This document shows, piece after piece, positions 6,143 to 53,048 of a stretch of 64,000 bases of DNA. The position numbers and the translations under genes were made by a program. Numbering within the stretch: position 1 is the first letter of the stretch; every line of letters begins with the position of its first letter. A model generated the notes under the pieces. The model was not told where the DNA came from and made no database searches. It was given only the letters and a program-made list of their open reading frames with translations. Location: assembly GCA_963782535.1 (NCBI GenBank), contig CAWAKE010000003.1, positions 780,730 through 844,729 of the forward strand. The letters run 5' to 3'. The stretch comes from an uncultured delta proteobacterium (GTDB lineage Bacteria > Desulfobacterota > Binatia > Binatales > Binataceae).

Positions 6143-6216
6143 ATGCGGTACCGCCGTTCGAACTTACCCGAGTGCCGCGCGAGATTGGGCAGTCGTGCGA
6201 AGCGATTTAATCGTAG

Positions 6217-6230
6217 TGCATTATAATGCA
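6217..6230. promoter_or_regulatory. perfect palindrome TGCATTATAATGCA (TGCA-N6-TGCA), candidate BoxR/BzdR operator overlapping a TATAAT-like -10
   Basis: read directly; 14-bp perfect inverted repeat in the 121-bp gap between the boxR stop and the boxC start. Confidence 0.55.
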
Positions 6231-6263
6231 TATCGAGAGCGCGAGGGTCAAACATCATGAGCA

Positions 6264-7220: not shown

Positions 7221-7233
7221 GCAATATAGTTCA
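7220..7233. promoter_or_regulatory. imperfect TGCA-N6-TTCA element in the boxR/ligase divergent promoter region
   Basis: TGCAATATAGTTCA in the AT-rich 100-bp intergenic region. Confidence 0.3.
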
Positions 7234-7317
7234 ACTATTCTTAGAACAGACACGGACGTAATGCTATCCCCCGGCATCAAGGTGAAGCGCGTGGAAGATT
7301 CGGTCGAGGCCCCGTAA

Positions 7318-9885: not shown

Positions 9886-10410
9886 CTATGGCGATGGGGC
9901 CGGCTTTAAGACAGGCGCCGTCGCGGATTTCTGCGATTCGCTTCGCAACTGGTTGAACAGGCTGCCGTTGAGATTGACGATCTGCCCGAGCGCCGCAACA
10001 ATCTTCGCTGACATTTCGGGGAAGGTGTCTTTACCGACGCGGAACACCGATGAATCCGCATAGACTTCGCCCGGCAATTTCGCGGCGAAGATAGTGAAGG
10101 TGATCGATACCGCTGAAATGCGCCCGACCATGCTGTCGCTGATACCTTCCCACAAATCTACCGACGCAATATGCACGCCGATGCCGTAGCCAGCGGTGGT
10201 AGTGGGTACCAGACGATAGCCGGGTGACTCGTCGATCTTATGTTTGAGAGCGACGCAAAAGCCCGCACCGACCGAATCGGGGCAATGGCAGGTAACTGCA
10301 ACCCCGACGCGCGAGTCGTTGGCGGCGGCATACACGGTTGTCGGGAGTACGCCGTCGATCATCAGCGCAAATGCGGCCGCAGCAAAAAAGATCAATCTTA
10401 GTGTTTTCAA
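9886..10410 (-). CDS. hypothetical secreted protein
   Basis: N-terminal signal-peptide-like segment (MKTLRLIFFAAAAFALMIDG); no recognisable domain. Confidence 0.5.
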   Translation of the reverse strand: MKTLRLIFFAAAAFALMIDGVLPTTVYAAANDSRVGVAVTCHCPDSVGAGFCVALKHKIDESPGYRLVPTTTAGYGIGVHIASVDLWEGISDSMVGRISAVSITFTIFAAKLPGEVYADSSVFRVGKDTFPEMSAKIVAALGQIVNLNGSLFNQLRSESQKSATAPVLKPAPSP

Positions 10411-10474
10411 GACCAGTGAAGGCTGACAAATGGCGAGGGCGCGCGCAACCGCCCGGCGCCGGCTGTGTGCTCAC

Positions 10475-11374
10475 TCATGCCGCAGCAACGTCAAGGCCTT
10501 GTTGCTCGCAGGTGTTCGCGACATCGGAGACGGTTGCGCGGTGCATTTCACGCGCCCAGCGCAAATCGTCGAAATCCGTGCCGCGATGCATGGTGCAACG
10601 ATCGTCCCACATCACGAGGTCATGCCGGCGCCATCGATGGGTATAGACGAACTGGCGCTGGGTCGCGTGGGCGACGAGACGGTCGATGAGGGCGAAGCTG
10701 TCATCCTCCGACATCCCGCGGATGCGGCCCGCGTGGGATGCGAGATAGAGCGACCGGCGGCCGTTTTCGGGAATCGTGCGCTCGATGACCTGAGGCACCG
10801 GCGGCAGATTGTTACGTTCGCCCTCGGTGAAGCTGTCAAAGCCGGTGCGCGCACGAGAGTACGCCAGCGCGTGATCCGCGATCAGCCCGGGCAGGATTCG
10901 TGCGAGCTCTGCGGGCAGGGCGTCGTGGGCGGCGCGCAAATCGGCAAATTCGGTATGGCCTCCGATTGGAGGGATCTGGCGCGCATAGAGCAGCGACGCA
11001 CGGGCCGGCAGTTACTTGAATGAGCTGTCGGTATGCCACAGGCGGTTGGCTTGCTGGAGGGCGCGGACGCGGCTGTCCTCTTTCCAGATTTGATTGCGCA
11101 GATTCAGATTGGAAACATCGGCCAATTCGGCAGGAATCCGTAACTTTGCGTCCTGGTTGAGCGCGGCCACGCTGGTTTCGAGCGGGCCGAAGTGGCCGGC
11201 AAATTCCAGATGCTGCTGTTCGGTGAGATCCTGATCGGGGAAAATCAGCACGGCGAAATCCCAGAAGGCCTGCTTGATCGCGGCGAGATCATCGGCGCCA
11301 AGCGGCCGGGAGAGGTCAGAGTCGCCAACTTCTGCGGCGAAGCCCGGCGTAATCGGGCAAATAGTGACGGGCAT
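10475..11374 (-). pseudogene. TauD/TfdA-family Fe(II)/2-oxoglutarate dioxygenase interrupted by an in-frame TAA (at 11012-11014)
   Basis: The two ORFs 11012..11440 and 10475..10939 are in the same frame. Together they read ...WHTDSSFK*LPARASLLYARQIPPIGGHTEFADLRAAHDALP, a contiguous TauD motif region. ATG at 11374 is preceded by GGAGG. Confidence 0.7.
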
Positions 11375-11559: not shown

Positions 11560-12018
11560 GTGAATCAGGATCGCAAGGTGCTAATCGGCCGCGCGCTGCC
11601 AGCGTTTACTTGCGTGCTCGACGAGGAAAACGTGCGCGACTATCTGCGCGTCACGGATGAGAATGTTGCGGCCTATCACGACGCCGCCAGTGCCCGCACA
11701 TCTGGCTATGATCGCCGCATTATTCCGCCGTCGTACGCGCCGTGGATTGCGTTGAGCGCGCTGCTCCGCTCGATCGATTGGGAGCGTGATTTCTACCTCG
11801 ACTACCGAACCGGTACGTCAATGTTCGGCGAACAGGAAATGATTTACGCGCGGCCGCTTCATGTTGGTGAATCGTTGACCTTTAGTGCGACCGTTCGCGA
11901 TATCGTCGAGAAGCAGGGAGCGCGGGCATTCGACCTGGTAACGATTAGCTATGACGCGACCGACGAGAGTGGTGCAAGCGCATTGCGCGGCGCCTGCGGG
12001 TTCATACTCTTCAAATAG
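11560..12018 (+). CDS. MaoC/hotdog-fold dehydratase subunit (N-terminal-type)
   Basis: hotdog-fold pattern; GTG 11560 preceded by GGAGG; the upstream part of the ORF overlaps the oppositely oriented pseudogene start and was trimmed. Confidence 0.6.
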   Translation: MNQDRKVLIGRALPAFTCVLDEENVRDYLRVTDENVAAYHDAASARTSGYDRRIIPPSYAPWIALSALLRSIDWERDFYLDYRTGTSMFGEQEMIYARPLHVGESLTFSATVRDIVEKQGARAFDLVTISYDATDESGASALRGACGFILFK

Positions 12019-12044
12019 AAAATCCAGAGACAGGAAATCCCTCG

Positions 12045-12485
12045 ATGGATCAGCGTGCGAAGGCCTTTTTCGAAGAAATGGCTCCGGGAACGGAAATTCC
12101 GCCGGCCAACTATGGTCCGATGGACCGCAACGCCTATATCACGACCGCGATAATCCTGCGCGATGGAAATCCGCTGCATCTCGATCGCGTCTATGCGCAC
12201 GACCGCGGTTTGCGCGACGTGGTGCAACAGGGTCCGCTGAATCAGTCCTATCTATATCGATTCCTCACCGATTGGCTGCATCGGCCGTGGGATCTGCGCC
12301 GCACTAAAATTCGCTTCGTCGCGAACGTCTTTCCGGGCGACGTCTTGAGCTGCCACGGTATCGTTGTCCGTACCTATCATGAAAACAACGAAGCGTTGGT
12401 TGACTGCAAGATATGGCAGGAGAATCAGAGCGGCAAGAAAACTCTTGTCGGCGAAGCGACTTTTACCTTACCGGAACGGAACTGA
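12045..12485 (+). CDS. MaoC-like (R)-specific enoyl-CoA hydratase subunit
   Basis: 146 aa MaoC dehydratase-like domain; forms an adjacent pair with the previous hotdog ORF (HadAB-like two-subunit arrangement). Confidence 0.7.
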   Translation: MDQRAKAFFEEMAPGTEIPPANYGPMDRNAYITTAIILRDGNPLHLDRVYAHDRGLRDVVQQGPLNQSYLYRFLTDWLHRPWDLRRTKIRFVANVFPGDVLSCHGIVVRTYHENNEALVDCKIWQENQSGKKTLVGEATFTLPERN

Positions 12486-12614
12486 CTAATGGAACTGACT
12501 ATGAGGCGCGCAGGTGGAGGCGGAATGGCTACGCTCTTCCGCGGGCAATTTACCTAATACGCGCGTCGAAGCTCAGATCGCTTCGCTCGGACAATCGGAT
12601 TTGTAGGCCACCGC

Positions 12615-13844
12615 TCAAGCAACCGACAGCAGCAACATTCCATTAAACCATAACACGGTTGCGGTCGCGAAAAGCGCCAGGATATTGGTAAGCCTCCCAT
12701 TCGCGTACTCTCCCATCACAGCCGGGCGCATAGTCAGGAAGACCAGCGGAATCAAGGCGAACGGAAGTACGACGCTCAAAGCGATCTGGCTATAGATCAG
12801 GATCCGGAAGGGATCAAAACCCATCGCAAGGATGGCGAGGGCCGGGACCAGCGTGATGGCGCGGCGCAGAAAGAGGTTTGCGCGAATCCCCCAGAATCCC
12901 TCGAAAACGACTTGGCCGGCGAGTGTGGCGGTCGCGGACGATGATATTCCCGCTACCAGCAATCCGAACGCGAAGGCACCGGCGGCCAGTGGGCCGAGCA
13001 GCGGCAACAGGGTTAAGTGAGCCTGCTCGATTGACATCACCGTGCGGCCGTTCTTGTGGAACACGGTTGCGGCCGTGATCAGGATAGCGGCGTTTATCAG
13101 CCAAGAAGCGTTGAGCGCGATGAGTGAATCACCGGCCGTTGACATCAGAGCGAAACGCTTCTCATCCTCGGTATCCCTGCGCACCAGCGACGAGTGCAAG
13201 AAGAGGTTGTGCGGCATTACCGTGGCGCCGACGATGCCAGCCGCGATAGCCGCACTGTCGCGGTCGAGTCGAGGTAAAAAGGTCGATGTGAGAATCGCGG
13301 CCCAATCCGGTGGCGCCATCGTTAACTCCACCACGTAGCAGAGGCCGACGAGCATGATCATAAAAATGAAAAGGCGTTCGACCGTGCGATCGCCGTAACG
13401 GTAAAGCGCCAGGATGCCGAAGGCGGCAAGCACGCTAAGAACTGCGGCAACGAGGCTTCCGAAGCCAAAAAGGAGTTCAAATCCGAGGATCGCACCCATA
13501 AATTCCGCAACGTCGGTCGCAATCAAGCCAATTTCCGCAACAACCCAGAGCGTGACCCAAACGCTGGTTGGAAAATGGCGACGACAGTTCTCGGAATAGG
13601 AATCCCCCGTAACCACGCCTAGCCGGGCGGACAAGAATTGAACGATGAGCGCGATCAAATTGCTGGCAAAGATCACCCACAAAAGCTGATAGCCAAAACG
13701 GCTGCCGGCCTCGAGGTCGGTCGCCCAGTTGCCGGGGTCGATGTAGCCGACGGCCACCAGAAAAGCGGGGCCGATATATGAGGCAAATCGCACAAAAGCG
13801 TGACCGCGCTGCGGTGCACGCTCGAAAACTTCAGAAGCTGCCAT
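12615..13844 (-). CDS. mntH: Nramp-family divalent metal (Mn2+/Fe2+) transporter
   Basis: GYIDPGNWATDL signature; about 11 predicted TM segments; 409 aa. Confidence 0.9.
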   Translation of the reverse strand: MAASEVFERAPQRGHAFVRFASYIGPAFLVAVGYIDPGNWATDLEAGSRFGYQLLWVIFASNLIALIVQFLSARLGVVTGDSYSENCRRHFPTSVWVTLWVVAEIGLIATDVAEFMGAILGFELLFGFGSLVAAVLSVLAAFGILALYRYGDRTVERLFIFMIMLVGLCYVVELTMAPPDWAAILTSTFLPRLDRDSAAIAAGIVGATVMPHNLFLHSSLVRRDTEDEKRFALMSTAGDSLIALNASWLINAAILITAATVFHKNGRTVMSIEQAHLTLLPLLGPLAAGAFAFGLLVAGISSSATATLAGQVVFEGFWGIRANLFLRRAITLVPALAILAMGFDPFRILIYSQIALSVVLPFALIPLVFLTMRPAVMGEYANGRLTNILALFATATVLWFNGMLLLSVA

Positions 13845-14330
13845 GCGCAGCGACCGTACCAGCTTTGAACTTCACCGGAAACAGCGCAACCCCGGCGGCT
13901 GCCGTTCTCGCGCCGTACACGGCAGCGAATGGAGCCATGCTGATTGCGGCATCCCGATTTGCAAGTTATTGATCAGTTTGCCACTATTGGCGGCGAAATT
14001 ACTGCGGCAAAAAGGTGCGAGTGCGGCCGCTCTGAATGCGTGTAATCTGAGCTTCGAGCGGCCCGATAGAAATTGCGTCCGGGAGGTCTCGCGCCGGCGG
14101 ATGGACAGGCTCCAGTCAAGCGCAGGAATATCCTCTGATTTTATGCGAGGAGCTTTGCGGTCTGGCCACCTGATTGAATAATCGAGCAGTATCCGGGGTT
14201 TGACTTTCCAGACGATATGTAGAAGGAAATCGTCGAGGGATTGACGCGTGTAAAGATAGCGCGAGCTGGCGGGTTGGGCTCTGCCGGCCTCGGCGGCATC
14301 GAGATTGAGTTGCGAAAAGGCAAGATCGGA

Positions 14331-14345
14331 TCGCGATAATCGCGA
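14331..14345. promoter_or_regulatory. 15-bp palindrome TCGCGATAATCGCGA upstream of the SDIMO operon (candidate activator/UAS site)
   Basis: perfect odd palindrome about 50 bp upstream of the sigma54-like element. Confidence 0.3.
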
Positions 14346-14392
14346 TTTCGGATGATGATTTATTAACGGAATTACCGGGCCAATGGCTACGA

Positions 14393-14407
14393 TGGCTCGC
14401 CAAGTGC
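14393..14407 (+). promoter_or_regulatory. putative sigma54 (-24/-12) promoter TGGCtcgccaagTGC
   Basis: GG and GC dinucleotides separated by 10 nt, matching TGGCAC-N5-TTGC spacing, about 50 nt upstream of the ATG at 14456; AAGGAG RBS at 14443-14448. Confidence 0.3.
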
Positions 14408-14455
14408 CGGAGCCACCTCGGCCAGATAGAGAAGACGCACAATAAGGAGACGACT

Positions 14456-16120
14456 ATGGCTAGCGGACTTAACCTCTCAAAGATTAAGGCTCAACGAGGA
14501 ATTCCGTTAAGCGAAGCGGCTCGACTGGTCTCCGACCTGGATTGGGTGCCCTCATACGCCAAGGAAGCCGCCAAGTATCCTACCGACTATAAGATCACGA
14601 AAGCTCCCAAAGACCCGACCAAATCAGTTCTCCGTTCGTATTTTCCGATGCAGAACGAGAAGAACAACCGGGTGTATGGCGCCCTGGATGCGGGGCTGCG
14701 CGGGGACATGTTCCGCAATGTCGAACCGCGCTGGATGGAGTGGATGAAGCTGTTTTTGGGCATCATCCCTTTTCCGGAAATCTCTGCAGCGCGTTCGATG
14801 GCGATGGAAGCGCGAGTGGTGCCGGGCGCCAACCTGAAGACCGGATTGACTATGCAAATGGTCGATGAACTCCGGCACTCCACGATCCAGATGAACCTTA
14901 AGAAATGGTACATGGAGAACTATATTGATCCGGCCGGCTTCGATATTCACGCGAAGGGCTTCGGTCGTTGTTACGCGAGTACGATTGGGCGGCAGTTCGC
15001 TGAAGGATTTCTGACTGGAGACAACATCACGGCTACCAATATCTTCCTGCAGGTGGTAGCCGAGACTGCATTTACCAATACATTGTTCGTCGCGATGCCT
15101 TCCGAGGCTGCCCGCAATGGCGACTATGCGATGCCGTCGGTCTTCCTGTCGGTGCAGTCCGACGAATCGCGGCACATGAACAACGGTCATGCGGTTCTGA
15201 TGTCGGTGCTCAATCACCCGGAAAACCATCAGCTATTGGAGCGCGATCTTCGGTACGCGTTGTGGCAGAATCACGCGATCGTGGATGCCGCTATCGGCGT
15301 GATTATTGAGTACGGCACCAAAGATCGGAGCAAGGACAAGGAATCATACCTCGAGCTTTGGCACCGGTGGGTTTACGACGACTATTACCGCAGCTTCCTG
15401 CTGCCGCTAGAAAAATACGGCGTTAAAATCCATCACGATGACATCGAAGAGATGTGGAACCGCATCTCCAAGAAGTGGTACGTGCACGAAGTTGCGCAGT
15501 TCTTTTCGGCCGGATGGCCGGTCAATTACTGGCGTATTGGCGGAATGGATGAGCGCGACTTCGAGTGGTTCGAGTACAAATACCCCGGTTGGTATAATCG
15601 GTTTGGGAAATGGTGGGAAAACTATCGGAAGCTCTCCAAGCCCAACCAGAAGCCGATCGTCTTCGAGGATACGGGATACAAGTATCCGATCCGCTGCTGG
15701 AGTTGCCTGGTTCCCGCTTTGATTCGCGAAGATTTCGTCTACGACGAAGTTGACGGTGAAGTTTTCGCCTACTGCTCCGAGATTTGCCGTTGGACGCACA
15801 AGGTTGCCTTTCAGGGCGAATACGAAGGTCGCCCGACCCCGGCGATGGGGCGTTTCACCGGCAAGCGAGAATGGGAGACCTGCTATCACGGGTGGGACTT
15901 GGCGGACATCCTGAAGGATCTCAAATTCCTGCGCAGCGACGGCAAAACGCTGATCCCGCAGCCCCATCTGTTGTGGGACGAAAAAGATATGTGGACCCTC
16001 GATCATATCAAGGGGTTGGAGTTCCGTAGCCCGCTGGTCGATTTCCGTGCGATGACGCCCGAACAAAGAGCGAAATGGGCTGAAGAATATCGCAAAGGCT
16101 TCACGGTACACTCGATCTAG
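14456..16120 (+). CDS. soluble di-iron monooxygenase (SDIMO) hydroxylase alpha subunit, propane/phenol (PrmA/MimA) type
   Basis: 554 aa; both di-iron E...EXXH motifs present (DELRH, DESRH); group 5/6 length; C-terminal C-X2-C...C-X3-C cluster. Confidence 0.9.
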   Translation: MASGLNLSKIKAQRGIPLSEAARLVSDLDWVPSYAKEAAKYPTDYKITKAPKDPTKSVLRSYFPMQNEKNNRVYGALDAGLRGDMFRNVEPRWMEWMKLFLGIIPFPEISAARSMAMEARVVPGANLKTGLTMQMVDELRHSTIQMNLKKWYMENYIDPAGFDIHAKGFGRCYASTIGRQFAEGFLTGDNITATNIFLQVVAETAFTNTLFVAMPSEAARNGDYAMPSVFLSVQSDESRHMNNGHAVLMSVLNHPENHQLLERDLRYALWQNHAIVDAAIGVIIEYGTKDRSKDKESYLELWHRWVYDDYYRSFLLPLEKYGVKIHHDDIEEMWNRISKKWYVHEVAQFFSAGWPVNYWRIGGMDERDFEWFEYKYPGWYNRFGKWWENYRKLSKPNQKPIVFEDTGYKYPIRCWSCLVPALIREDFVYDEVDGEVFAYCSEICRWTHKVAFQGEYEGRPTPAMGRFTGKREWETCYHGWDLADILKDLKFLRSDGKTLIPQPHLLWDEKDMWTLDHIKGLEFRSPLVDFRAMTPEQRAKWAEEYRKGFTVHSI

Positions 16121-16211
16121 TGTCGGTCGTGAGCGTTGAAGTGAGTAAACAAAGACCTCGTGATTCGGCGGCCGCACAGCGTGCGTGTCGCCGACTGATT
16201 GCGGAGTAGTC

Positions 16212-17243
16212 GTGTCGAAGTCTTACAACGTTCGCCTGGAGCCGGTCGGCGTCGAGATGGAGGTCGAGGAAGGCGAAACAGTGCTATCCGCGGCCTTTCG
16301 TCAGGGTATCATGCTGATGCATGGCTGTAAGGAAGGGCAGTGCTCCAGTTGCAAATCGATTTTGCTCGACGGCGATATCGAATTACTCAAGTATTCTACT
16401 TTTGCGCTGGCCGACTATGAACGGGACGAGAACTATATACTACTTTGCCGGACCTTGGCGCACAGTGATCTATCCGTTGAGCTACTGAGTTATGATGAGG
16501 ATCTTCTAACGCACTCGATCCCGGTGCGGAACTATCCCGCGAAGGTTGTAGCAATCGATCGCCTCACGCCTGACATCTGCGGACTCGGGCTCGAGTTGGG
16601 CCTGCCGTTCAAGTTCTTTGCAGGTCAGTACGTTGACATCACGCTTCCCGGCAGCGGATTGATCAGATCCTTTTCGATGGCCAATCCTCCCGGCGACAGC
16701 CGGCTAGATTTTATCATCAAGATATATCCGGATGGCGCGTTTTCGTCGGCGCTCGACAAGGAACTCAAAATCGGCGACGAACTCGATATCAAAGGCCCGT
16801 ACGGAATCTGCTTTCGACACGAGAATCGATCAGGTCAGATGATTCTCGTTGGCGGCGGCTCTGGGATGGCGCCATTGTGGTCTATCGTAAATGATCTTGT
16901 GCGTAGCGGGGAGCAGCGTCCGCTAACATTTTTCTATGGTGCGCGCACTCAGCGCGATCTATTTTACCTCGATCGGATCGAGGCGATTGGCAAGGTCCTG
17001 CCGGATTTTCGCTTCATCCCCGCGCTTTCCAATGAGCCGGCAGGAACCGACTGGAAGGGCGAAACCGGTTTCATCCATGAGGTAGTCGCCCGCCACCTGC
17101 GCGGCGCCGATATCGACGATCAGGCGGAAGCCTATTGCTGCGGGCCGCCGCCAATGATCGAGGCGACAGTACCGGTACTTCAAGTAAGCGGAGTAGAACC
17201 GGAGCGCATCCACATGGAGAAGTTTACTCAGGCTTCGCATTGA
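16212..17243 (+). CDS. SDIMO NADH oxidoreductase (plant-type [2Fe-2S] ferredoxin + FAD/NAD(P) reductase)
   Basis: C-X4-C-X2-C ferredoxin motif (CKEGQCSSCKS), RSFS FAD motif, GGGSGMAP NAD motif; GTG 16212 with a GGAG RBS is preferred over GTG 16185. Confidence 0.85.
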   Translation: MSKSYNVRLEPVGVEMEVEEGETVLSAAFRQGIMLMHGCKEGQCSSCKSILLDGDIELLKYSTFALADYERDENYILLCRTLAHSDLSVELLSYDEDLLTHSIPVRNYPAKVVAIDRLTPDICGLGLELGLPFKFFAGQYVDITLPGSGLIRSFSMANPPGDSRLDFIIKIYPDGAFSSALDKELKIGDELDIKGPYGICFRHENRSGQMILVGGGSGMAPLWSIVNDLVRSGEQRPLTFFYGARTQRDLFYLDRIEAIGKVLPDFRFIPALSNEPAGTDWKGETGFIHEVVARHLRGADIDDQAEAYCCGPPPMIEATVPVLQVSGVEPERIHMEKFTQASH

Positions 17244-17309
17244 TTTTGGGCAAAGCGATCCTGCAGCAATCACGTATTATATTCATGGAAATCAGAACAG
17301 GAGGCTCAG

Positions 17310-18377
17310 ATGGCGGAGTCTGAAAAAGAGTCGGCGGCGGCGGGCGCCAGGACATTTCCCGGGTCGGATAGCCGTAAGTTTGACTATTTTGAACCGCAAG
17401 GGCGGACTGCGACACTGTATGAAGACCTGACCGTGGATGTTCAGCCGGATCCCGAACGCTACCTCCTGCAGGGTTGGATACTCGGGTTTCCCGACGGTTC
17501 GCCGACCTACACGGAAAAGCGAACTGCGGTAAAAAGTTCTAATTGGCATCAGTTTCGTTCGGTCGATCAGGAATGGGACCGCACGCACTATCAACGCCAA
17601 GCCGCCGTTGAAAGCGCGATTAAAATGATCAGCGAGAATGCCCGGGCCCAAGGCGCCCCAGCCGCATTCGATCCTAGTTGGGTTTCAGTTCTGCAAAATC
17701 ACGTCGGCGCACTGAAGCATCCCGAATACTCACTCGGAATAACTTTCATGCAGGCGCAGCGCGACGGCATGAGCCAGATGATCAACACCACGATTCTGAC
17801 GAACGCATCTTACAAGCTGCGATTCTGCCAGGATTTGACACTCTATCTGGCGGAAATCGGTCTGGATCTCAGCAAGTTCGATACGGCTGCGGGTAAACAA
17901 TCCTGGCTGAACGATCCGGTTTGGCAGGACAGCCGCAAGGGGATCGAGACTATCAGGGGTATATCCGATTATCTTGAGGGCGTTTTCGCTGCGAATCTGC
18001 TCTATGAAAACCTGGTGACCAGCCTGGTGCGTAAATTTGTCGTGCGGTTCGGTGCCGAGCATGGCGATTTTGCGACACCCAGCGTAGTAGGCTTCGGCCA
18101 GGCAGATTACGAACGCAATCTCGCAAACAGTATCGAATTGTTTCGCGTTCTGCTCAACGACGACAAGTACGCTGAGACTAATCGTGACTTGGCGAAGCAC
18201 TGGATCGAGAAATACGCGCCGCTGTGTGTAAAGGCGGCTCAGGGACTGCTGCCGCTGTGGTCGCAGACCCGGATTAAGTGCGCTACTTTCGAAGACGCCT
18301 TTGAACATGTCAAAAGCAATACCGTCGAGAGCTTGTCGCAGATAGATCCGGCGCTCGCGAAGGGAGTGAAATTCTGA
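17310..18377 (+). CDS. SDIMO hydroxylase beta (small) subunit
   Basis: 355 aa, position and size as PrmC/MimC; GGAGG RBS; stop overlaps the next start (TGATG). Confidence 0.8.
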   Translation: MAESEKESAAAGARTFPGSDSRKFDYFEPQGRTATLYEDLTVDVQPDPERYLLQGWILGFPDGSPTYTEKRTAVKSSNWHQFRSVDQEWDRTHYQRQAAVESAIKMISENARAQGAPAAFDPSWVSVLQNHVGALKHPEYSLGITFMQAQRDGMSQMINTTILTNASYKLRFCQDLTLYLAEIGLDLSKFDTAAGKQSWLNDPVWQDSRKGIETIRGISDYLEGVFAANLLYENLVTSLVRKFVVRFGAEHGDFATPSVVGFGQADYERNLANSIELFRVLLNDDKYAETNRDLAKHWIEKYAPLCVKAAQGLLPLWSQTRIKCATFEDAFEHVKSNTVESLSQIDPALAKGVKF

Positions 18378-18739
18378 TGGCAGAACGACCGCAAGCGAAC
18401 ATCGACGTTCATGGCGCTCGTGAAGACGCGGTCTCCCATAAGTGTGGAGTGACGCTGAACGATAGCGTGCAGAGCCGCGAGATCGTCAAGGTGATGGAGC
18501 ATAAGCCCGGGGTTGTAATTACCCACTATCCTTCGATGATCAGGATCGATGGCCAGGACAAGCTCGAATTCGACATGAAAGAGTTGAGCGAGGCGTTGGG
18601 CCGCGAATACGATCCCTACGATTTTACGATCGAGATGGCTACGCACTACGGGCGGATGGTCATGTTCGATGACAAGCTGGTTTTTTTCGGCAAGCTTGAA
18701 GATGCGCTGCCCTATGAAATGGCGGACGAGGACACCTGA
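18377..18739 (+). CDS. SDIMO coupling/effector protein (MmoB/DmpM family)
   Basis: 120 aa; start overlaps the beta-subunit stop; size and position as PrmD/MimD. Confidence 0.75.
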   Translation: MAERPQANIDVHGAREDAVSHKCGVTLNDSVQSREIVKVMEHKPGVVITHYPSMIRIDGQDKLEFDMKELSEALGREYDPYDFTIEMATHYGRMVMFDDKLVFFGKLEDALPYEMADEDT

Positions 18740-18770
18740 CGCCGGCGGGTTGCGAGACTCAGAGGCGTTA

Positions 18771-18801
18771 GCTTCCGACCGCGGAAGCCTTCAATTTTCA
18801 A
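18771..18801 (+). terminator. weak hairpin (GCTTCCG-ACCG-CGGAAGC) plus T-rich tail between coupling protein and chaperonin; possible attenuator
   Basis: 7-bp stem followed by CTTCAATTTTCAA. Confidence 0.3.
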
Positions 18802-18820
18802 CTCTGACTGGAGATAGCGG

Positions 18821-20461
18821 TTGCCCAAACTAATCCTTTATCAGGACGAGGCACGGATCGCGCTGGGACGCGGCGTGGACAAACTGACCCGCGCGGTTCG
18901 AGCGACACTCGGCCCCAAGGGCGGCAATACGATCATTGATCGCACGATCGGTCCGCCGATCGTGTCGCGCGACGGCGTCAGTATCGCCGACGAGATCGAA
19001 CTCGAAGATCCGTTTGAGAATGTTGGCGCTCAAGTCGTACGCGAGGTTGCACGAAAAACCAGTGAGACCGTCGGAGACGGGACTACTACGGCGACGGTGC
19101 TCGCGAACGCAATTTTGCAGCGCGGGCTGGAAGCCCTCGCACGCAAGGCAAATCCAGTTGACCTTGTGCGGGGAATTGAAAGCGCCGGCGAATTCGTCAT
19201 TGCAACGCTTCAGCGTTCTGCCCGGCCAATTGCTAGCGACAAGGAATTGGAAGCGGTCGCCGCCATTGCCGCCGGCGAGGATTTCACCGGCCAGTTGGTC
19301 GCACAGGCTATCCAGAAAGTTGGCGCCCAGGGTGTCATTACGACGGAAATCGGCCAAGCCCTGATAAGCACCCTGGAAGCGGTCGAGGGTATCGCATTTG
19401 ATCGCGGCTACCTCTCTCACTACATGGCAACCAACCCCGAAAAGACCTTGGCCACGCTCGACAAGCCATATCTTTTGATGACCGATCAGCGCATCGGATC
19501 GGTGGAACAGATCGCACGAATTGTAGAGGTCGTGAAAGGTGTTGCCGGTTCGCTCCTGATAATTGCCGAAGACATTACTGGCGAGGTTGTTGCCGCACTG
19601 ATGGCCGCGAGTTCGCCCGACACGCCGATTGTCGCAATCCATCCGCCCGAGTACGGGAAGTGGCGACAAGCCACGCTTGAAGATCTTGCGATCATGACCG
19701 GGGGGCGGGTGCTTGCGCGAGAGACCGGAGGTCGTCTCGAGACGGCCCAGCTAAAGGACCTCGGAAGAGCGCGAGCAGCGACAATTTCGGGCCAGCGCAC
19801 GGTGATTACCGGTGGCCAGGGAGATGCCGGGGAGATAGCCGCGCGCCGTGAACTGATCGGCCAGCAACTGGCCGATGCTTCTGAACAACCGACCGAGTTG
19901 GACAAGCTCAAGGAGCGCATGGCGAAACTGTGCGGCGGTAGTGCGGTAATTCGGGTCGGCGGGGCTTCGCTCAGCGAGCAGCGCCGGCGCTCCCAGATGA
20001 TCGAAAACGCGATCAATGCCGCACACGCCGCGGTTGAGGAAGGTATACTTCCCGGCGGTGGAACCGGACTGATGCGCGCCGTGCCGAAATTGCAGGAGCT
20101 CATCGATTCGGCATCGGGCGACGTGAAGGAAGGGATGCGAATCGTTCAGCGCGCTGCGGCCGAGCCGCTGCGATGCATCGCCGAAAATTGCGGCGTCGAT
20201 CCGGATGAAACCGAACAGCGCGTTTCGAAGTCCGGCCCGGAAATCGGATTCAATGCTCGTAACGGCACGTTCGAAAATCTGATCGCCAGCGGCGTCATAG
20301 ATCCGGTCAGAACCTGTTGCACCGCATTGCGAAGCGCAATTTCGGTGGCTGGTTTGCTCTTGACGACCAATACCGTGATTGTAACGAGGCCGGATTACGT
20401 GGATGTCACGACTAGTGCAGCCCGCGGCGGTGGCATGGAAGAAGTCATCGACGAATCATAA
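18821..20461 (+). CDS. groL: GroEL-like chaperonin paralogue dedicated to the SDIMO (MimG-like)
   Basis: 546 aa Cpn60 (GDGTTTATVLA, AVEEGILPGGG); no C-terminal GGM repeat tail; actinobacterial-type N-terminus (KLILYQDEAR); TTG start with GGAG RBS. Confidence 0.85.
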   Translation: MPKLILYQDEARIALGRGVDKLTRAVRATLGPKGGNTIIDRTIGPPIVSRDGVSIADEIELEDPFENVGAQVVREVARKTSETVGDGTTTATVLANAILQRGLEALARKANPVDLVRGIESAGEFVIATLQRSARPIASDKELEAVAAIAAGEDFTGQLVAQAIQKVGAQGVITTEIGQALISTLEAVEGIAFDRGYLSHYMATNPEKTLATLDKPYLLMTDQRIGSVEQIARIVEVVKGVAGSLLIIAEDITGEVVAALMAASSPDTPIVAIHPPEYGKWRQATLEDLAIMTGGRVLARETGGRLETAQLKDLGRARAATISGQRTVITGGQGDAGEIAARRELIGQQLADASEQPTELDKLKERMAKLCGGSAVIRVGGASLSEQRRRSQMIENAINAAHAAVEEGILPGGGTGLMRAVPKLQELIDSASGDVKEGMRIVQRAAAEPLRCIAENCGVDPDETEQRVSKSGPEIGFNARNGTFENLIASGVIDPVRTCCTALRSAISVAGLLLTTNTVIVTRPDYVDVTTSAARGGGMEEVIDES

Positions 20462-20537
20462 GGGCGTTCCTCTGATACGCAGTCGCGCGTCTTCAAAGAT
20501 TGCGCGGAGCGATCGAAAGCAAGAAAATCCAGCAGTC

Positions 20538-20576
20538 AGCGCCAGCCGATCTTTCGGCTGGCGCTTTTTATTTTTC
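20538..20576 (+). terminator. rho-independent terminator of the SDIMO-groEL operon
   Basis: AGCGCCAGCCGA-tcttt-TCGGCTGGCGCT followed by TTTTTATTTTT. Confidence 0.65.
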
Positions 20577-20682
20577 AAGTTCAAGCGCGCAATTCCAAGA
20601 GACGCACGAATCGGCGCCTTAGGCCGAGCGGAAAGAACGCGAAATCGCCAAGGTTTGTCAAAATATTACAAGCTAAGAAAAA

Positions 20683-20754
20683 TGCCCCGGCCGGGAATCG
20701 AACCCGGACTTGAGGTTCCGGAGACCTCCGTGATGTCCTTTTCACTACCGGGGC
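20683..20754 (-). tRNA. tRNA-Arg (anticodon CCG)
   Basis: Cloverleaf folded by hand: acceptor GCCCCGG/CCGGGGC, D-stem GTGA/TCAC, anticodon stem GAGGT/ACCTC with loop CTCCGGA, T-arm CCGGG-TTCGATT-CCCGG, discriminator A; CCA not encoded. Confidence 0.8.
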
Positions 20755-20884
20755 ACAAGGCAAGCGGCTGACGAAAGCAGTATATCAGGCGAGCAGGGCG
20801 GACAAGAGCATGCCGCGAAAACCGCCCGATGCGACCGCGTCGCGGCGCCGTCACAGCGCGGCGGATTTCGCGACCTTTCTCGCT

Positions 20885-22093
20885 TCAGACCGCTTCCGCA
20901 TCACGCAAGGCTCCGATCTCCTCCCATGAATAACCGAGTTCGAGCAGGATTTCCTCGGTGTGCTGCCCGTGCTCCGACACCGGCTTCGCTTCCGTCGCAA
21001 TCTCGCCGTTAAGCGATACCGGGCAGCCGGTCACCGTGATCTTTCCCGCCACCGGATGATCGAGGTCGAGCAGGTAGCCATTGGCGCGCGCCTGTTCGCT
21101 ATTGAGCACCTGGTGATGGTTCGCAACTTCGGTCACCAGGATGTCAGCCGCGGTGAGCTCGGCGAGCCATTCCTGCGTGGTCTTATTCGGGAAAATCTCG
21201 TCGAGTATTCTTTCGATTTTTTCGCCGCGAAAGTTGCGCGTGGCATTGTCGAACTCGGGGTCGTCTTGAAGCTTCTCGATACCCATGATGCGGCAGAAAT
21301 CCGGCCAGCGTTTGTCATCGACGCCGGCGATACAGATGAAGTTGTCTTTCGTGCGAAACGCGCCCCACACTCCGTGCAGAAACGGATGGCCGCGGCCCGC
21401 GCGCGGCGGCTCCTCACCGGTCAGCGACGCGTAGTTGAGCTCGAAGCCTTGCGACGCGATCATGGTCCCGTAAATCGACGCATCGACCTTCTGGCTCTTG
21501 CCGGTGCGCTCACGCGCGAACAACGCCGCCATCACACCGCCCGCCAGCGTCAACGCTCCGGTCTGGTCCGCGATCGCCGCACCGGCCGCCAGCGGCGGGT
21601 CCGACGGCATCCCGGTCTTCGACATCAACCCGCTGGCCGCTTGCGCGAGCGTATCGCGGCTCGGTCGTGAAACCCACGGGCCGCGCGGACCCCACGAACT
21701 GGCTTGCGCATAGACGATTTTCGGATTGAGCTTGCGCACGTCCTCGTAGCCGAGTCCGAGCCGGTCGAGTACGCCCGGCCGATAGTTGGTCAGCAGCACG
21801 TCATGGGTCGCCACCAGCCGTTTGACGACTTCGATCCCTTGCGGCTTCTTCAAATCGACCGTAATGCTGCGCTTGCCCCGGTTCATCGCAATGAAATAGT
21901 GCGAGACGTTCGCGTTCTTCGTGTCCGGCCCTCCAATCAGGGCGGCCAGCAGCCAGCGGCTCAGATCACCGGTTTCGCGATTTTCGACCTTGGTGATTTC
22001 GGCCCCGAGATCGGCCAGGAACAGCCCCGCGAACGGACCCTGGATCTCCTGCGCGATCTCGATAACCTTAATTCCTTCAAGCGGCTTACTCAT
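20885..22093 (-). CDS. CoA-transferase family III (CaiB/BaiF) protein
   Basis: Starts MSKPLEGIKVIEIAQ...; typical family III fold, about 400 aa; the 717-aa ORF-track call has a spurious 314-aa N-terminal extension overlapping the divergent methyltransferase. Confidence 0.8.
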   Translation of the reverse strand: MSKPLEGIKVIEIAQEIQGPFAGLFLADLGAEITKVENRETGDLSRWLLAALIGGPDTKNANVSHYFIAMNRGKRSITVDLKKPQGIEVVKRLVATHDVLLTNYRPGVLDRLGLGYEDVRKLNPKIVYAQASSWGPRGPWVSRPSRDTLAQAASGLMSKTGMPSDPPLAAGAAIADQTGALTLAGGVMAALFARERTGKSQKVDASIYGTMIASQGFELNYASLTGEEPPRAGRGHPFLHGVWGAFRTKDNFICIAGVDDKRWPDFCRIMGIEKLQDDPEFDNATRNFRGEKIERILDEIFPNKTTQEWLAELTAADILVTEVANHHQVLNSEQARANGYLLDLDHPVAGKITVTGCPVSLNGEIATEAKPVSEHGQHTEEILLELGYSWEEIGALRDAEAV

Positions 22094-22294
22094 GGTTTCG
22101 AACCCCCGCACCAAATTGCTGTGCTTCGACGAAGCGGGCGCATTATCACGCGCTTTCGCCGCGCTCTTCAAGCCCGTCGCGAAATTCGCTGAACGCTGTG
22201 CCCGGTAAATCTCTCCGCGAGCTACTGAATTGCCGAGATGCGGGCCGCATCGTGCCATTTTGCAGTTGCACCGACCGCGGCTAAGCTGCGCGCC

Positions 22295-23077
22295 ATGGAA
22301 ACGAGCATTTATGAATTCCCCGATATCTTCCGCCGCGTACATATGGAGCGGCCGGGTGAGGTTGAACAGGAGACCGAATTCTTGCGCGAAGTCTGGCGAC
22401 ACCATTATCGGCGCCCGGTCCAGCGCGTGCTCGACATCGCATGCGGTAATTCGCCGCACGGGCAAATTCTGGCGCGGGCTGGAATCGCGGCGGTGGGCGT
22501 GGATAACTCGCCGTCGATGATCGCTGCGGGGCGCACCGAGTCGCGGAGGTCCGGCGACATGCGCTTCTATCGCCGTAAAATCGAGCGCTTCAAACTGTCC
22601 GAACGCCCCTTCGACGCCGCCATCTTCATGTGTGAGACCTTTCCGGTGCTCCGGACCAACGTCGCATTGATGTCGCATCTGAAGTCGGTCGCGAGACTGC
22701 TCAAACGCGGCGGCCTCTATTGCATCGATATCGATCGTCACGACGGCGTCGAGCTGGTCACGCGCCGGCGCCTGTGGCGCGAGCGCAAAGTTAAAATCGG
22801 GGCGGTCGGCGTGGACGTGTGCGAATTTCATCGCCCGATTGCATGGGACGATGCGATGCACTCGATGTACGAACTCGAATGTACAATTCGCTTCCCCGAT
22901 CGCAAAGTCGTTACGCGCGACCTTATCCCGGTGCGCTATACCACGCCGCCACTGATGGACCTGCTGGCGCGCGCATCGGGCTGCTTCAAATTGCTCGCAT
23001 GCTATCCCGATCTTTCGTTCACGCGGCCGCTTGCCCAATGCGACGGTCGCTGGCTCGCCGTGCTCAAACGCTCTTAA
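22295..23077 (+). CDS. class I SAM-dependent methyltransferase
   Basis: VLDIACGNSPHG motif I; start trimmed to ATG 22295 (METSIYEF...). Confidence 0.75.
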   Translation: METSIYEFPDIFRRVHMERPGEVEQETEFLREVWRHHYRRPVQRVLDIACGNSPHGQILARAGIAAVGVDNSPSMIAAGRTESRRSGDMRFYRRKIERFKLSERPFDAAIFMCETFPVLRTNVALMSHLKSVARLLKRGGLYCIDIDRHDGVELVTRRRLWRERKVKIGAVGVDVCEFHRPIAWDDAMHSMYELECTIRFPDRKVVTRDLIPVRYTTPPLMDLLARASGCFKLLACYPDLSFTRPLAQCDGRWLAVLKRS

Positions 23078-52930: not shown

Positions 52931-53048
52931 AACAACCTCCGTGCGCGCTGTGAACCCAGCGTCGGCCCGGCGCCGGTTCAGTTGATCTTTGCCGTTAAAT
53001 CGATTAGACCGGACCGTCTGTCCGCGCACCTCGTCGATTCGATCACGG

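Follow-up and report, generated by a model that had tools for sequence, protein, structure and literature searches.

A predicted group 5 soluble di-iron monooxygenase operon with a MimG-like chaperonin gene in Candidatus Binataceae

Layout of the cassette and its components

The window analysed is a stretch of 64,000 nt of contig CAWAKE010000003.1 (GCA_963782535.1), and all coordinates are positions in it. The host belongs to Candidatus Binataceae and is an uncultured soil bacterium. Five genes at 14456-20461 code for the components of a soluble di-iron monooxygenase (SDIMO) and a Cpn60 paralogue (Table 1). The first-pass annotation had described a complete SDIMO operon with a GroEL-like gene, placed between Nramp and tRNA-Arg; the domain profiles of every ORF and the gene order confirmed the former, PF01566 and ARAGORN/Rfam the latter, and the profile search proposed there recovered the expected SDIMO and Cpn60 domains. 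The statement that all gene junctions are tight or overlapping was incorrect, since only the start of the coupling gene overlaps the beta stop (TGATG), the remaining spacers being 91, 66 and 81 nt.

Table 1. Features of the cassette and its surroundings in the window
Feature	Position	Strand	Evidence or description
Nramp/MntH-type divalent metal (Mn2+/Fe2+) importer	12615-13844	-	PF01566, E 3e-113
Conserved 27-nt motif ATTTGCAAGTTATTGATCAGTTTGCCA	13957-13983	.	divergent promoter region
Possible Zn-alcohol dehydrogenase 5'-end relic (weak)	14023-14106	+	blastx
Amidohydro_2 pseudogene relic, last ~70 codons	14139-14351	+	nucleotide match, blastx, collinearity
Hydroxylase alpha subunit, PrmA/MimA-type, 554 aa	14456-16120	+	PF02332, E 1.6e-59
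NADH:oxidoreductase component, 343 aa	16212-17243	+	Fer2 + FAD_binding_6 + NAD_binding_1
Hydroxylase beta subunit, 355 aa	17310-18377	+	PF02332, E 1.6e-58
Coupling/effector protein, MmoB/DmpM family, 120 aa	18377-18739	+	PF02406 (MmoB_DmpM), E 1e-24
MimG-like Cpn60 paralogue, 546 aa, last operon gene	18821-20461	+	PF00118
Intrinsic terminator	20538-20575	+	12-bp stem (9 G-C pairs), 4-nt loop, then TTTTTATTTTT
tRNA-Arg(CCG)	20682-20755	-	ARAGORN + Rfam, 63 bits

Ribosome binding sites precede the gene starts in the cassette. The Cpn60 gene starts with TTG, with GGAG upstream. The reductase ORF opens at 16185, and its start is likely the GTG at 16212, which has GGAG upstream and matches the 343-aa public gene call. 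The G+C content of the operon is 0.56 compared with 0.61-0.63 in the flanks. The predicted terminator is strong and closes the operon. The divergent Nramp flanks the cassette upstream; the tRNA-Arg(CCG) downstream marks the right boundary and has no functional role in the cassette, and no direct repeat derived from it was found elsewhere in the 64-kb window.

The top PDB match of the alpha subunit is MmoX (E 1.5e-67). In the alignment with this protein all six di-iron ligands are intact: E138/H141 lie in DELRH, E237/H240 in DESRH, while E108 and E203 align with E114 and E209 of MmoX. In the reductase the [2Fe-2S] signature C-x4-C-x2-C-x31-C and the motifs RSFS and GGGSGMAP were found. Both the intact di-iron motifs and the complete [2Fe-2S], FAD and NAD motifs claimed before are therefore present. 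The reductase is MmoC-like (246 bits) and the coupling protein scored 116 bits against the NCBIfam MimD model (cut-off 150). Since both proteins stay under the MmoC and MimD equivalog cut-offs, we only infer a functional equivalence with the actinobacterial enzymes.

Group assignment, lost satellite genes and promoter region

In the alpha phylogeny, also proposed in the first-pass annotation, the protein was nested within SDIMO group 5 at 100% bootstrap and not with non-SDIMO ferritin-like proteins. Its clade includes Methylocella silvestris PrmA and Sulfobacillus and is distinct from ThmA and from the references of groups 3, 4 and 6. In group 5 the genes run alpha-reductase-beta-coupling, and the substrates are propane, acetone, MEK, THF and others (PMC11825192). 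The gene order had been taken as a signature of group 5/6; the group 5 part holds, and group 6 membership was rejected because the order in that group is alpha-beta-coupling-reductase (PMC11825192; reference locus L089). By gene order and phylogeny the predicted enzyme is a member of group 5 and not of group 6, and its alpha subunit places it in the Methylocella/Sulfobacillus clade, the 'subgroup C' of a 2025 review, according to which this subgroup has no characterised member (PMC11825192). The sole genetic data for subgroup C come from Methylocella, whose subclade lost a Cys4 motif that is kept in the window protein.

The alpha subunit is 95-97% identical to those of other Binataceae, 77-78% to Sulfobacillus, 71% to Methylocella silvestris and 60-64% to the actinobacterial Prm-type proteins. 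When 22 positions for ligands and pocket were carried over from MmoX, the subunit proved identical to the Prm-type proteins of Rhodococcus, Williamsia and Amycolatopsis and showed a single T/S change relative to Methylocella, whereas the other groups differ. Since prmABC has already been reported in Binatota (PMC8262859), the cassette is a further member of a known enzyme group and its presence in this phylum is not new.

No homologues of Zn-ADH, Amidohydro_2, DUF59 or sigma-54 activators were found in the whole 64 kb by tblastn and Pfam searches, in agreement with the earlier statement that the activator, the alcohol dehydrogenase and the amidohydrolase are missing. The order in the sister Binataceae is Nramp / ADH-amidohydrolase-prmABCD-groEL. 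The 611-nt spacer between Nramp and prmA in the window holds a stop-riddled relic of an amidohydrolase 3' end, which shows 72% nucleotide identity over 98 nt with the 3' part of the amidohydrolase of the sister locus L082 (E 9e-11) and matches residues 268-330 of the Amidohydro_2 proteins of L082, L003 and Sulfobacillus in blastx (E 1e-8 to 3e-6). Translated, the relic aligns collinearly with the C-terminal end of the L082 protein and is broken by in-frame stops, and its end lies as far from prmA as expected. The match of 14023-14106 with residues 3-30 of the L082 ADH (39% identity; E 0.024, with a very small database) is only suggestive of an ADH 5' relic. Judged from the relics and the sister loci, the absence of the two genes is due to a secondary deletion of ~1.9 kb in the lineage of the window. 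Since the ADH and amidohydrolase of the cluster were lost in this way, downstream metabolism and regulation must be located elsewhere; the inspection covered the 64-kb window, and the genes of the downstream pathway are presumed to lie in other parts of the genome. The compact prmABCD-groEL form is the usual one in the Methylocella-type subclade.

TTTGCAAGTYATYGRTSAGTTTGCC is shared by five Binataceae loci in the corresponding spacer (the window, L001, L002, L082 and L003, the last of them though it has no Nramp), and the spacer motif is absent from L092. The 27-nt motif may be an operator or a promoter element. Neither MimR nor any other sigma-54 enhancer-binding protein was detected in the 64 kb by tblastn, and a weak sigma-54-like motif at 14393 has no conserved counterpart in L082, L003 or L092.

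Proposed function and alternative explanations

Taken together, the sequence data make it very probable that the cassette, part of a Candidatus Binataceae chromosome, codes for a functional four-component group 5 SDIMO of the PrmABCD/MimABCD type, and that its transcript also includes the gene of a dedicated MimG-like chaperonin. With the mechanism taken from the enzyme family, the FAD/[2Fe-2S] reductase would accept electrons from NADH and pass them to the hydroxylase, an (alpha-beta)2 assembly, at the carboxylate-bridged di-iron centre of its alpha subunit, and the activation of O2 would be gated by the coupling protein. A small substrate would be hydroxylated, likeliest propane at C2, acetone (to acetol), related short ketones or phenol. 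The Cpn60 paralogue would fold and assemble the hydroxylase, and the divergent Nramp probably brings in Fe2+ and/or Mn2+ during synthesis or turnover of the enzyme.

The Cpn60 gene could be the general GroEL of the organism, adjoining the operon by chance: the ATPase motifs GDGTTT and AAVEEG...PGGG are present, the GroEL subfamily models match, and the view covered the 64-kb window, a separate housekeeping groESL being assumed elsewhere in the genome. However, no groES was found upstream of or beside the gene, the score against the TIGR02348 GroEL equivalog is 546.4 (cut-off 582.1), and the canonical GroELs in the PDB gave only ~400-430 bits. The protein changes faster than the alpha subunit (84-88% versus 95-97% identity in the same genome pairs), the place of its gene after the coupling gene is kept in Binataceae and Alphaproteobacteria, and its closest homologues outside Binataceae (P0148, P0149 and P0217, 52-56%) were found inside group 5 SDIMO clusters in all three cases sampled. 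By these relationships the predicted protein belongs to a clade of SDIMO-cluster chaperonins; the earlier distinction of a dedicated chaperonin from a housekeeping groEL is upheld by the sub-cut-off score, the lack of groES and this clade, and a general GroEL is hardly credible. MimG is required for heterologous MimABCD activity (PMC11825192). It is very unlikely, too, that the whole cassette is a decaying remnant, unused since ADH, amidohydrolase, DUF59 and any regulator nearby disappeared. Pseudogene relics do lie directly upstream, a regulator was not found within 64 kb, and the conserved motif of the promoter region and prmA now lie ~470 nt apart, with a long leader between them. Against this, the five ORFs and Nramp are intact and under strong purifying selection (dN/dS 0.015-0.12; alpha 0.015-0.022, beta 0.06-0.10, Nramp 0.09-0.11) in comparisons with synonymous sites near saturation (dS 0.7-1.6), the reduced form has been retained in four or more diverged lineages (window/L097, L001, L002, L092), and this minimal set of genes is functional in Methylocella.

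If the enzyme is a functional group 5 SDIMO, its substrate and the role of its neighbour are left to be weighed. Propane, acetone or related small molecules are the inferred substrates; a different one, e.g. a cyclic ether, a nitrosamine, a phenolic compound or an endogenous metabolite, is rather unlikely but deserves to be taken into account. Group 5 enzymes also oxidise THF, dioxane, NDMA, MEK and phenol, subgroup C is termed uncharacterised (PMC11825192), and the lineage discarded the secondary-alcohol dehydrogenase and amidohydrolase typical of propane/acetone-type clusters. The MmoX-mapped pocket, however, is that of the Prm-type and unlike the THF enzyme ThmA, and the closest studied relative, the Methylocella PrMO, serves growth on propane, 2-propanol and acetone from a cluster likewise without ADH. 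In case of the Nramp, the protein exceeds the cut-off of the MntH model NF001923 (448.6 bits, cut-off 430) and keeps both metal-site motifs, DPGN (36) and MPHN (210), intact. The divergent arrangement recurs in L001, L002, L082-84, L092 and L097. Of 80 species-representative loci of group 5, 21 have a linked Nramp, as do L092, L096 and L097, and the linkage extends over four phyla (Binataceae, Bacillota, Actinomycetota and a betaproteobacterium). The linked Nramps come from three or more unrelated clades: none of 200 bootstraps recovered an exclusive clade of the Binataceae- and Actinomycetota-linked proteins, and identity is just 21-23% for the Sulfobacillus type. In L096 the operon itself even contains the gene, with groEL and mimR on either side. 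Since the linkage recurs across phyla, positions and unrelated clades, pure accident is unlikely, and the earlier idea of metal supply is strengthened to this extent; the support is correlative and does not prove supply. MntH-type Nramps are chiefly Mn2+ importers and peroxide-induced in enterobacteria. It is quite possible, if not the explanation we favour, that the transporter is no cofactor supplier, the adjacency being accidental or serving Mn2+ import against H2O2 from uncoupled turnover of the monooxygenase. The L092 Nramp adjoins an Fe/Mn superoxide dismutase, the Binataceae locus L003 lacks Nramp, and so do all sampled alphaproteobacterial and Chloroflexota clusters and most actinobacterial ones. 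The linkage counts against accident only and is compatible with Fe supply and Mn protection alike; the recurrent association of Nramp with SDIMO cassettes is a testable lead.

Comparison with known systems

The sister Binataceae (L082-L084, L003) share 95-96% identity in the alpha subunit, the conserved spacer motif and, except for L003, the same Nramp, but they have kept ADH and Amidohydro_2 upstream of prmA and carry a DUF59 (PF01883) gene adjoining Nramp. A PF01883 protein, PaaD, probably aids maturation of another di-iron oxygenase, the phenylacetyl-CoA epoxidase PaaABCDE. PaaD parallels the DUF59 gene found in most group 5 clusters; PaaABCDE differs in being an unrelated oxygenase subfamily, and the window itself has no DUF59 gene in its 64 kb.

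The group 3 enzymes, sMMO and butane monooxygenase, have the same di-iron hydroxylase fold and a cluster-encoded GroEL paralogue, MmoG/BmoG (PMC11825192), but they differ from the window in the gamma subunit, MmoD and the order alpha-beta-coupling-...-reductase (L090), with 34% alpha identity.

MimABCD/MimG of Mycolicibacterium smegmatis and PrmABCD of Gordonia TY-5 and Rhodococcus RHA1, compared through related genera as proxies, represent the actinobacterial subgroup B of group 5. They have four components in the same order as the window and a cluster-encoded Cpn60, which is needed for activity there (PMC11825192), and the ligands and mapped pocket of the Rhodococcus/Williamsia-type proteins are the same. 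Unlike the window, they form a sister clade with only 60-64% alpha identity and have Amidohydro_2-DUF59-ADH inserted between the coupling gene and groEL; the coupling protein of the window stays under the MimD equivalog cut-off.

The Methylocella silvestris propane monooxygenase differs in having an activator of the MimR type (sigma-54) immediately behind the cluster and a strong upstream promoter, TGGCAT-N5-TTGCT, in lacking Nramp and the Cys4 motif, and in belonging to a different phylum. It shares with the window the alpha clade (71% identity, 100% bootstrap), a near-identical mapped pocket and the compact alpha-reductase-beta-coupling-Cpn60 arrangement without interposed ADH, amidohydrolase or DUF59.

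Genes of the cassette and their assignment to group 5

The genes listed in the first-pass annotation (an Nramp transporter, the hydroxylase alpha and beta subunits, the reductase, the coupling protein, a Cpn60 protein and a tRNA-Arg) were all recovered, with the ORF map, Pfam and NCBIfam in agreement. Among PDB structures, which include no group 5 enzyme, the alpha subunit matched MmoX, the hydroxylase alpha of sMMO, best (E 1.5e-67), and in the alignment E108, E138/H141 (DELRH), E203 and E237/H240 (DESRH) corresponded to E114, E144/H147, E209 and E243/H246 of MmoX. All six metal ligands are thus present and the two E...EXXH motifs are intact, as had been proposed, while the [2Fe-2S], FAD and NAD motifs of the reductase were likewise complete (C-x4-C-x2-C-x31-C, RSFS and GGGSGMAP). 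The gene junctions had all been described as tight or overlapping; this is true of the TGATG overlap between the beta and coupling genes only, the remaining spacers being 91, 66 and 81 nt. The dN/dS values were low in all six genes despite the near-saturated synonymous sites.

Features of the cassette and of the benzoyl-CoA cluster in the window, with dN/dS of the window against three diverged Binataceae loci (dS 0.7-1.6, near saturation at synonymous sites)
Feature	Position	Strand	Evidence or remark	dN/dS
boxB	3078-4496	-	TIGR03225, 822 bits	
boxC	4493-6142	-	TIGR03222, 909 bits	
BzdR/BoxR-type HTH + shikimate-kinase-like regulator	6264-7340	-		
Benzoate-CoA ligase	7318-8901	+		
Nramp/MntH importer	12615-13844	-	ORF map, Pfam, NCBIfam	0.09-0.11
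Hydroxylase alpha, 554 aa	14456-16120	+	PF02332, E 1.6e-59	0.015-0.022
Reductase	ORF opens 16185; RBS-preceded GTG 16212	+	343 aa from the GTG, as in the public gene call; Fer2, FAD_binding_6, NAD_binding_1	~0.055
Hydroxylase beta	17310-18377	+	ORF map, Pfam, NCBIfam	0.06-0.10
MmoB/DmpM coupling protein	18377-18739	+	ORF map, Pfam, NCBIfam	0.10-0.12
Cpn60 protein	18821-20461	+	ORF map, Pfam, NCBIfam	0.07-0.09
Terminator, 12-bp stem	20538-20575	+	closes the prm-Cpn60 unit	
tRNA-Arg(CCG)	20682-20755	-	strand opposite to the operon	

The gene order is alpha-reductase-beta-coupling in group 5 (propane-2/acetone/THF monooxygenases) and alpha-beta-coupling-reductase in group 6 (propane-1 monooxygenases) (PMC11825192), and the stretch 14456-18739 has the group 5 order exactly. 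A cut-off of 40% identity is given for the grouping of alpha subunits within group 5 (PMC11825192); the window protein is 60-78% identical to group 5 proteins from outside the Binataceae and 95-97% identical to proteins of Candidatus Binataceae MAG contigs (L001-L003, P0001). The alpha phylogeny was built as a bootstrapped neighbour-joining tree with few references, rather than by maximum likelihood on the full family, and it put the window protein within the Prm clade at 100% bootstrap support. The references came from annotated plasmids and included ThmADBC of Rhodococcus ruber YYL (group 5), EtnABCD of M. chubuense NBB4 (group 4), the alpha-beta-coupling-reductase cluster of Rhodococcus WAY2 (group 6 layout) and an sMMO-like cluster with groL of Rhodococcus ZPP (group 3 layout). 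The window, the other Binataceae, Sulfobacillus (77-78% identity) and Alphaproteobacteria including Methylocella silvestris (71%) formed one clade with 100% bootstrap, sister to an actinobacterial/Chloroflexota Prm clade (60-68%). Within group 5 ThmA branched outermost; the group 3, 4 and 6 proteins fell outside it, the WAY2 protein (L089) being 37.5% identical to that of the window. Of the "group 5/6 signature" suggested earlier, the group 5 part is borne out by gene order and tree, while group 6 differs in both. On these two lines of evidence the cassette is assigned to group 5, and within it to the Methylocella-type subclade.

In order to compare the active sites, 22 ligand and pocket positions of alpha were mapped from MmoX. 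The window residues were the same as those of Sulfobacillus and of the actinobacterial Prm-type proteins, apart from a single A/V exchange in one Rhodococcus; Methylocella had one T/S change, and ThmA and groups 3, 4 and 6 differed from the window. The identity of the pocket, taken with the genetics of Methylocella, supports, short of proof, a predicted substrate range like that of the propane-2/acetone monooxygenases.

The presence of prmABC in some Binatota genomes was described by Murphy et al. in 2021 (PMC8262859). In an SDIMO review of 2025, Binataceae are mentioned under groups 1 and 6, while subgroup C of group 5 comprises Pseudomonadota, one Bacillota and one Verrucomicrobia, without a characterised enzyme (PMC11825192). 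A group 5 SDIMO in Binatota has already been flagged, at the level of KEGG annotation; new here are the deletion history of the cassette and the recurrent, independent linkage of such clusters to Nramp.

Loss of accessory genes and the region upstream of prmA

Across 97 loci, tblastn was combined with Pfam annotation of the public gene calls in each neighbourhood, and four types of layout were distinguished. The usual accessories of group 5 in these loci are Amidohydro_2, a PF01883/DUF59 protein, a Zn-dependent alcohol dehydrogenase (ADH) and Cpn60, often joined by a sigma-54 activator of the MimR type. In the actinobacterial layout the amidohydrolase, DUF59 and ADH genes are inserted between the coupling gene and groEL, in Sulfobacillus they lie with mimR and Nramp on the opposite strand and rpoN follows the coupling gene, and the Methylocella-type Alphaproteobacteria have prmABCD-groEL-mimR only. 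The Binataceae themselves show a long form (L082-L084), in which DUF59 and Nramp on the minus strand are followed by ADH, amidohydrolase, prmABCD and groEL on the plus strand; L003 has the same arrangement without Nramp. The short form, a minus-strand Nramp followed directly by prmABCD and groEL, was found in the window and in L097, L001, L002 and L092.

The 611-nt spacer of the window retains traces of the long form. Over its opening ~140 nt it corresponds to the Nramp-ADH spacer of L082, and at 14153-14250 it shares 72% identity with the L082 amidohydrolase gene in the 3' part of the latter (E 9e-11). Translated, the stretch 14139-14351 lines up collinearly with the C-terminal ~70 residues of Amidohydro_2 in L082, L003 and even Sulfobacillus; in-frame stops interrupt it, and its end lies as far from prmA as expected. 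A weak match to ADH residues 1-30 (E 0.02) lies at 14023-14106. These matches show that the accessory genes were lost by a deletion of ~1.9 kb between the ADH and amidohydrolase genes, the 5' end of the former becoming fused to the 3' end of the latter. The spacer of L097 is 87% identical to that of the window, thus the deletion is older than the split between the two. The satellite genes had been called missing, and outside the spacer no homologue of ADH, amidohydrolase, DUF59 or an enhancer-binding protein was found in the 64-kb window; the relic and the weak ADH match, however, remain. An ORF of 112 aa at 13843-14181 was considered as a gene; it has no family match, shares 2 nt with the start of Nramp and crosses a conserved spacer motif and the relic region, and was therefore treated as non-coding.

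Loci of Arboricoccus, Methylocella, Rhodomicrobium and Sulfobacillus have strong -24/-12 promoters (19.5-22 of 22) upstream of prmA. The best site of this kind in the window, TGGCTCGCCAAGTGCC at 14393 (GG-N10-GC), scored 18.5 of 22, a value reached by 11 sites in 128 kb (~0.09 per kb per strand); it is unconserved in L082, L003 and L092 and is at most a weak candidate for a sigma-54 promoter. No homologue of an enhancer-binding protein, MimR included, was found in the 64-kb window, which together with this score speaks against a sigma-54/MimR operon. The sigma-70 scan upstream of prmA gave no convincing site, and in the Rfam search of 12000-21500 (E<=1) the tRNA was the only RNA detected, with no riboswitch in the Nramp-prmA spacer. 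A motif of 25-27 nt, TTTGCAAGTYATYGRTSAGTTTGCC (window 13957-13983), is kept in five Binataceae spacers, among them that of L003, which has no Nramp. It lies ~470 nt upstream of prmA in the window and ~45 nt before the ADH start in L082, and because of the latter position it probably marks the promoter or operator of the operon. In Sulfobacillus (L085/L086 14250-15587 and L004-L008) rpoN directly follows the coupling gene and a MimR-type activator is also present; this cluster supplies its own sigma factor.

The chaperonin and the recurrent linkage to Nramp

The Cpn60 gene begins 81 nt after the coupling gene within the same terminator-bounded unit. Its product has the GroEL ATPase motifs and scored 546.4 bits, below the 582.1-bit cut-off of the GroEL equivalog TIGR02348; no groES ORF stands beside it in the ORF map, and both features set it apart from a housekeeping GroEL. 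With canonical GroELs of solved structure it scored just ~400-430 bits, and its tail has one GGGM and no GGM repeats. Between the same genome pairs the Cpn60 proteins are 84-88% and the alpha subunits 95-97% identical, which indicates that the chaperonin evolves faster. Among its homologues the Binataceae proteins group tightly (76-97%). The next tier lies at 52-56%, and three of its proteins were sampled (P0148, P0149 and P0217, from an alphaproteobacterial MAG, Inquilinus limosus and Pseudorhodoferax); all three lie inside group 5 clusters of the order alpha-reductase-beta-coupling-amidohydrolase-DUF59-GroEL. A dedicated chaperonin of the MimG type would be expected to show these features, and a separate housekeeping groESL would then be predicted elsewhere in the same genome. 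Heterologous MimABCD activity requires MimG (PMC11825192). Between the coupling and Cpn60 genes a 7-bp G+C-rich hairpin is followed by CTTCAATTTT (18771-18788, + strand); as a putative partial terminator it might determine how much chaperonin transcript is made relative to that of the monooxygenase.

The Nramp protein (PF01566, E 3e-113; above the NF001923 cut-off) has the metal-site motifs DPGN (TM1) at 36 and MPHN (TM6) at 210, by which it is predicted to be of the Mn2+/Fe2+ importer type. An identical protein (P0241) is encoded on a public contig of 1.40 Mb. Nramp genes were found within the fetched flanks of 21 of the 80 species-representative group 5 loci, and additionally in L092, L096 and L097. 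Their positions vary: divergent from prmA in the Binataceae and in L092 (where NCBI labels the Nramp as Terriglobales and an Fe/Mn SOD adjoins), at the end of the accessory operon in Sulfobacillus, immediately 3' of groEL in many Actinomycetes, upstream of the cluster in one Acidimicrobiales genome and between groEL and mimR in Pseudorhodoferax. The window Nramp is 60-64% identical to P0259 and P0261, which adjoin no SDIMO, and only 41-46% identical to the actinobacterial and 21-23% to the Sulfobacillus and Acidimicrobiales linked Nramps; none of 200 bootstraps recovered an exclusive clade of the Nramps linked in Binataceae and in Actinomycetota. By these comparisons the SDIMO-linked Nramps are not one family and were recruited independently at least three times, which makes a chance adjacency unlikely. 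A genome holds roughly 0-2 Nramp genes, and by estimate rather than computation the ~1.5 Mb of loci should contain about one Nramp or fewer. Nramp is an optional accessory, and many group 5 clusters lack it.

The suggestion that the Nramp may supply Fe/Mn gains from the recurrent linkage and the repeated recruitment, which, however, do not separate the supply of Fe2+ to the di-iron centre from an import of Mn2+ against peroxide. We tentatively consider, without rating it as probable, that a module devoted to metal acquisition and maturation belongs to group 5 clusters and that metallation of the hydroxylase in vivo is an assisted, limiting step. Such a module would consist of Nramp (at least three recruitments, four phyla), DUF59/PF01883, a COG0523 (CobW-type) GTPase in some Proteobacteria and Cpn60, and the window would be its minimal surviving form, with Nramp and the chaperonin. 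In the extreme version the Nramp would signal a requirement for Mn, for example in an Mn/Fe cofactor, instead of iron supply. A CobW/COG0523 GTPase, a WD40 protein and an ORF of ~60 aa were seen just upstream of the clusters of Inquilinus limosus (L095 20-2327) and Pseudorhodoferax (L096 1-1515), the GTPase being a further metal-handling gene that accompanies some proteobacterial group 5 clusters. Literature searches on Nramp/MntH or DUF59 at propane/SDIMO clusters yielded no interpretation of the linkage; a bioRxiv paper notes in passing, in a gene map, an Nramp downstream of the dxm/thm cluster of Pseudonocardia dioxanivorans.

Flanks, origin and relation to known enzymes

The closest relative, the L097 contig, shares 92% DNA identity over 13.7 kb and the same layout, and it alone shares the left flank (MaoC, FAS1-type dehydratase, TauD and box genes); L001-L003 have only the Nramp-prm-groEL module in common with the window and their flanks differ. 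A recent horizontal insertion at the tRNA was considered and is not supported: the window contains neither an integrase nor a tRNA-derived direct repeat. Since the module is lower in G+C than its flanks in 7 of the 8 compared loci, including Methylocella, to a lesser degree than in the window (the exception being Sulfobacillus L085), this property is not good evidence of recent transfer. The clade of Binataceae, Sulfobacillus and Alphaproteobacteria makes an older exchange between phyla plausible.

The aerobic benzoyl-CoA (box) cluster at 3078-8901 adds a second di-iron oxygenase to the window; no boxA reductase was seen near it. A TauD-family dioxygenase gene (10478-11374, -) has an in-frame stop at 11012-11014, which is either a pseudogene mutation or a sequencing error; its L097 orthologue is intact (299 aa, 94% identical). 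A reading of TauD as a truncated gene was rejected as an ORF-calling artefact, the sequence being a single gene with this stop, and the 197-aa ORF overlapping it on the opposite strand (10430-11023, +) is probably spurious. The neighbouring 174-aa ORF (9886-10410, -) has no Pfam family and is conserved in L097. The CoA-transferase III ORF (20885-23038, -) has 717 aa from a TTG start; the domain occupies residues 320-694 only, the N-terminal ~320 residues match no Pfam family at E<=0.001, and the true start is probably further downstream. Four luciferase-like monooxygenase genes (34695-35720, -; 42311-43615, +; 43894-45201, +; 52079-53158, -), two of them tandem paralogues of ~435 aa, agree with the large number of LLM/ladA-like genes described in Binatota.

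Taken together, the original observation is confirmed and its interpretation is supported with corrections; the substrate, the regulation and the role of the importer in the cassette are predictions from sequence. The operon is a well-preserved minimal example of group 5 subgroup C from an uncultured phylum suspected of short-alkane oxidation, and is of relevance for enzyme discovery and for how propane, acetone and further volatile organics are budgeted in soil. Of more use is the comparative result that group 5 clusters repeatedly and independently acquire Nramp, alongside DUF59 proteins and chaperonins. If the linkage is functional, co-expression of the importer and maturation genes could improve the expression of group 5 enzymes, which is difficult in heterologous hosts, and the question is raised how cells load di-iron centres.

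The alpha subunit also contains four cysteines (C414, C417, C440 and C444, window ~15695-15787) in a CxxC...CxxxC arrangement, which may be a structural metal site. The motif is kept in Binataceae, Sulfobacillus, Actinomycetota, Chloroflexota and the group 3, 4 and 6 references, is half-lost in Labrys/Rhodomicrobium and is absent from the Methylocella/Arboricoccus subclade. The nearest enzyme with genetic data is the PrMO of Methylocella, the alpha subunit of Methylocella silvestris being 71% identical to that of the window; this sole genetically studied close relative lacks the four-cysteine motif, whereas the window protein has it.
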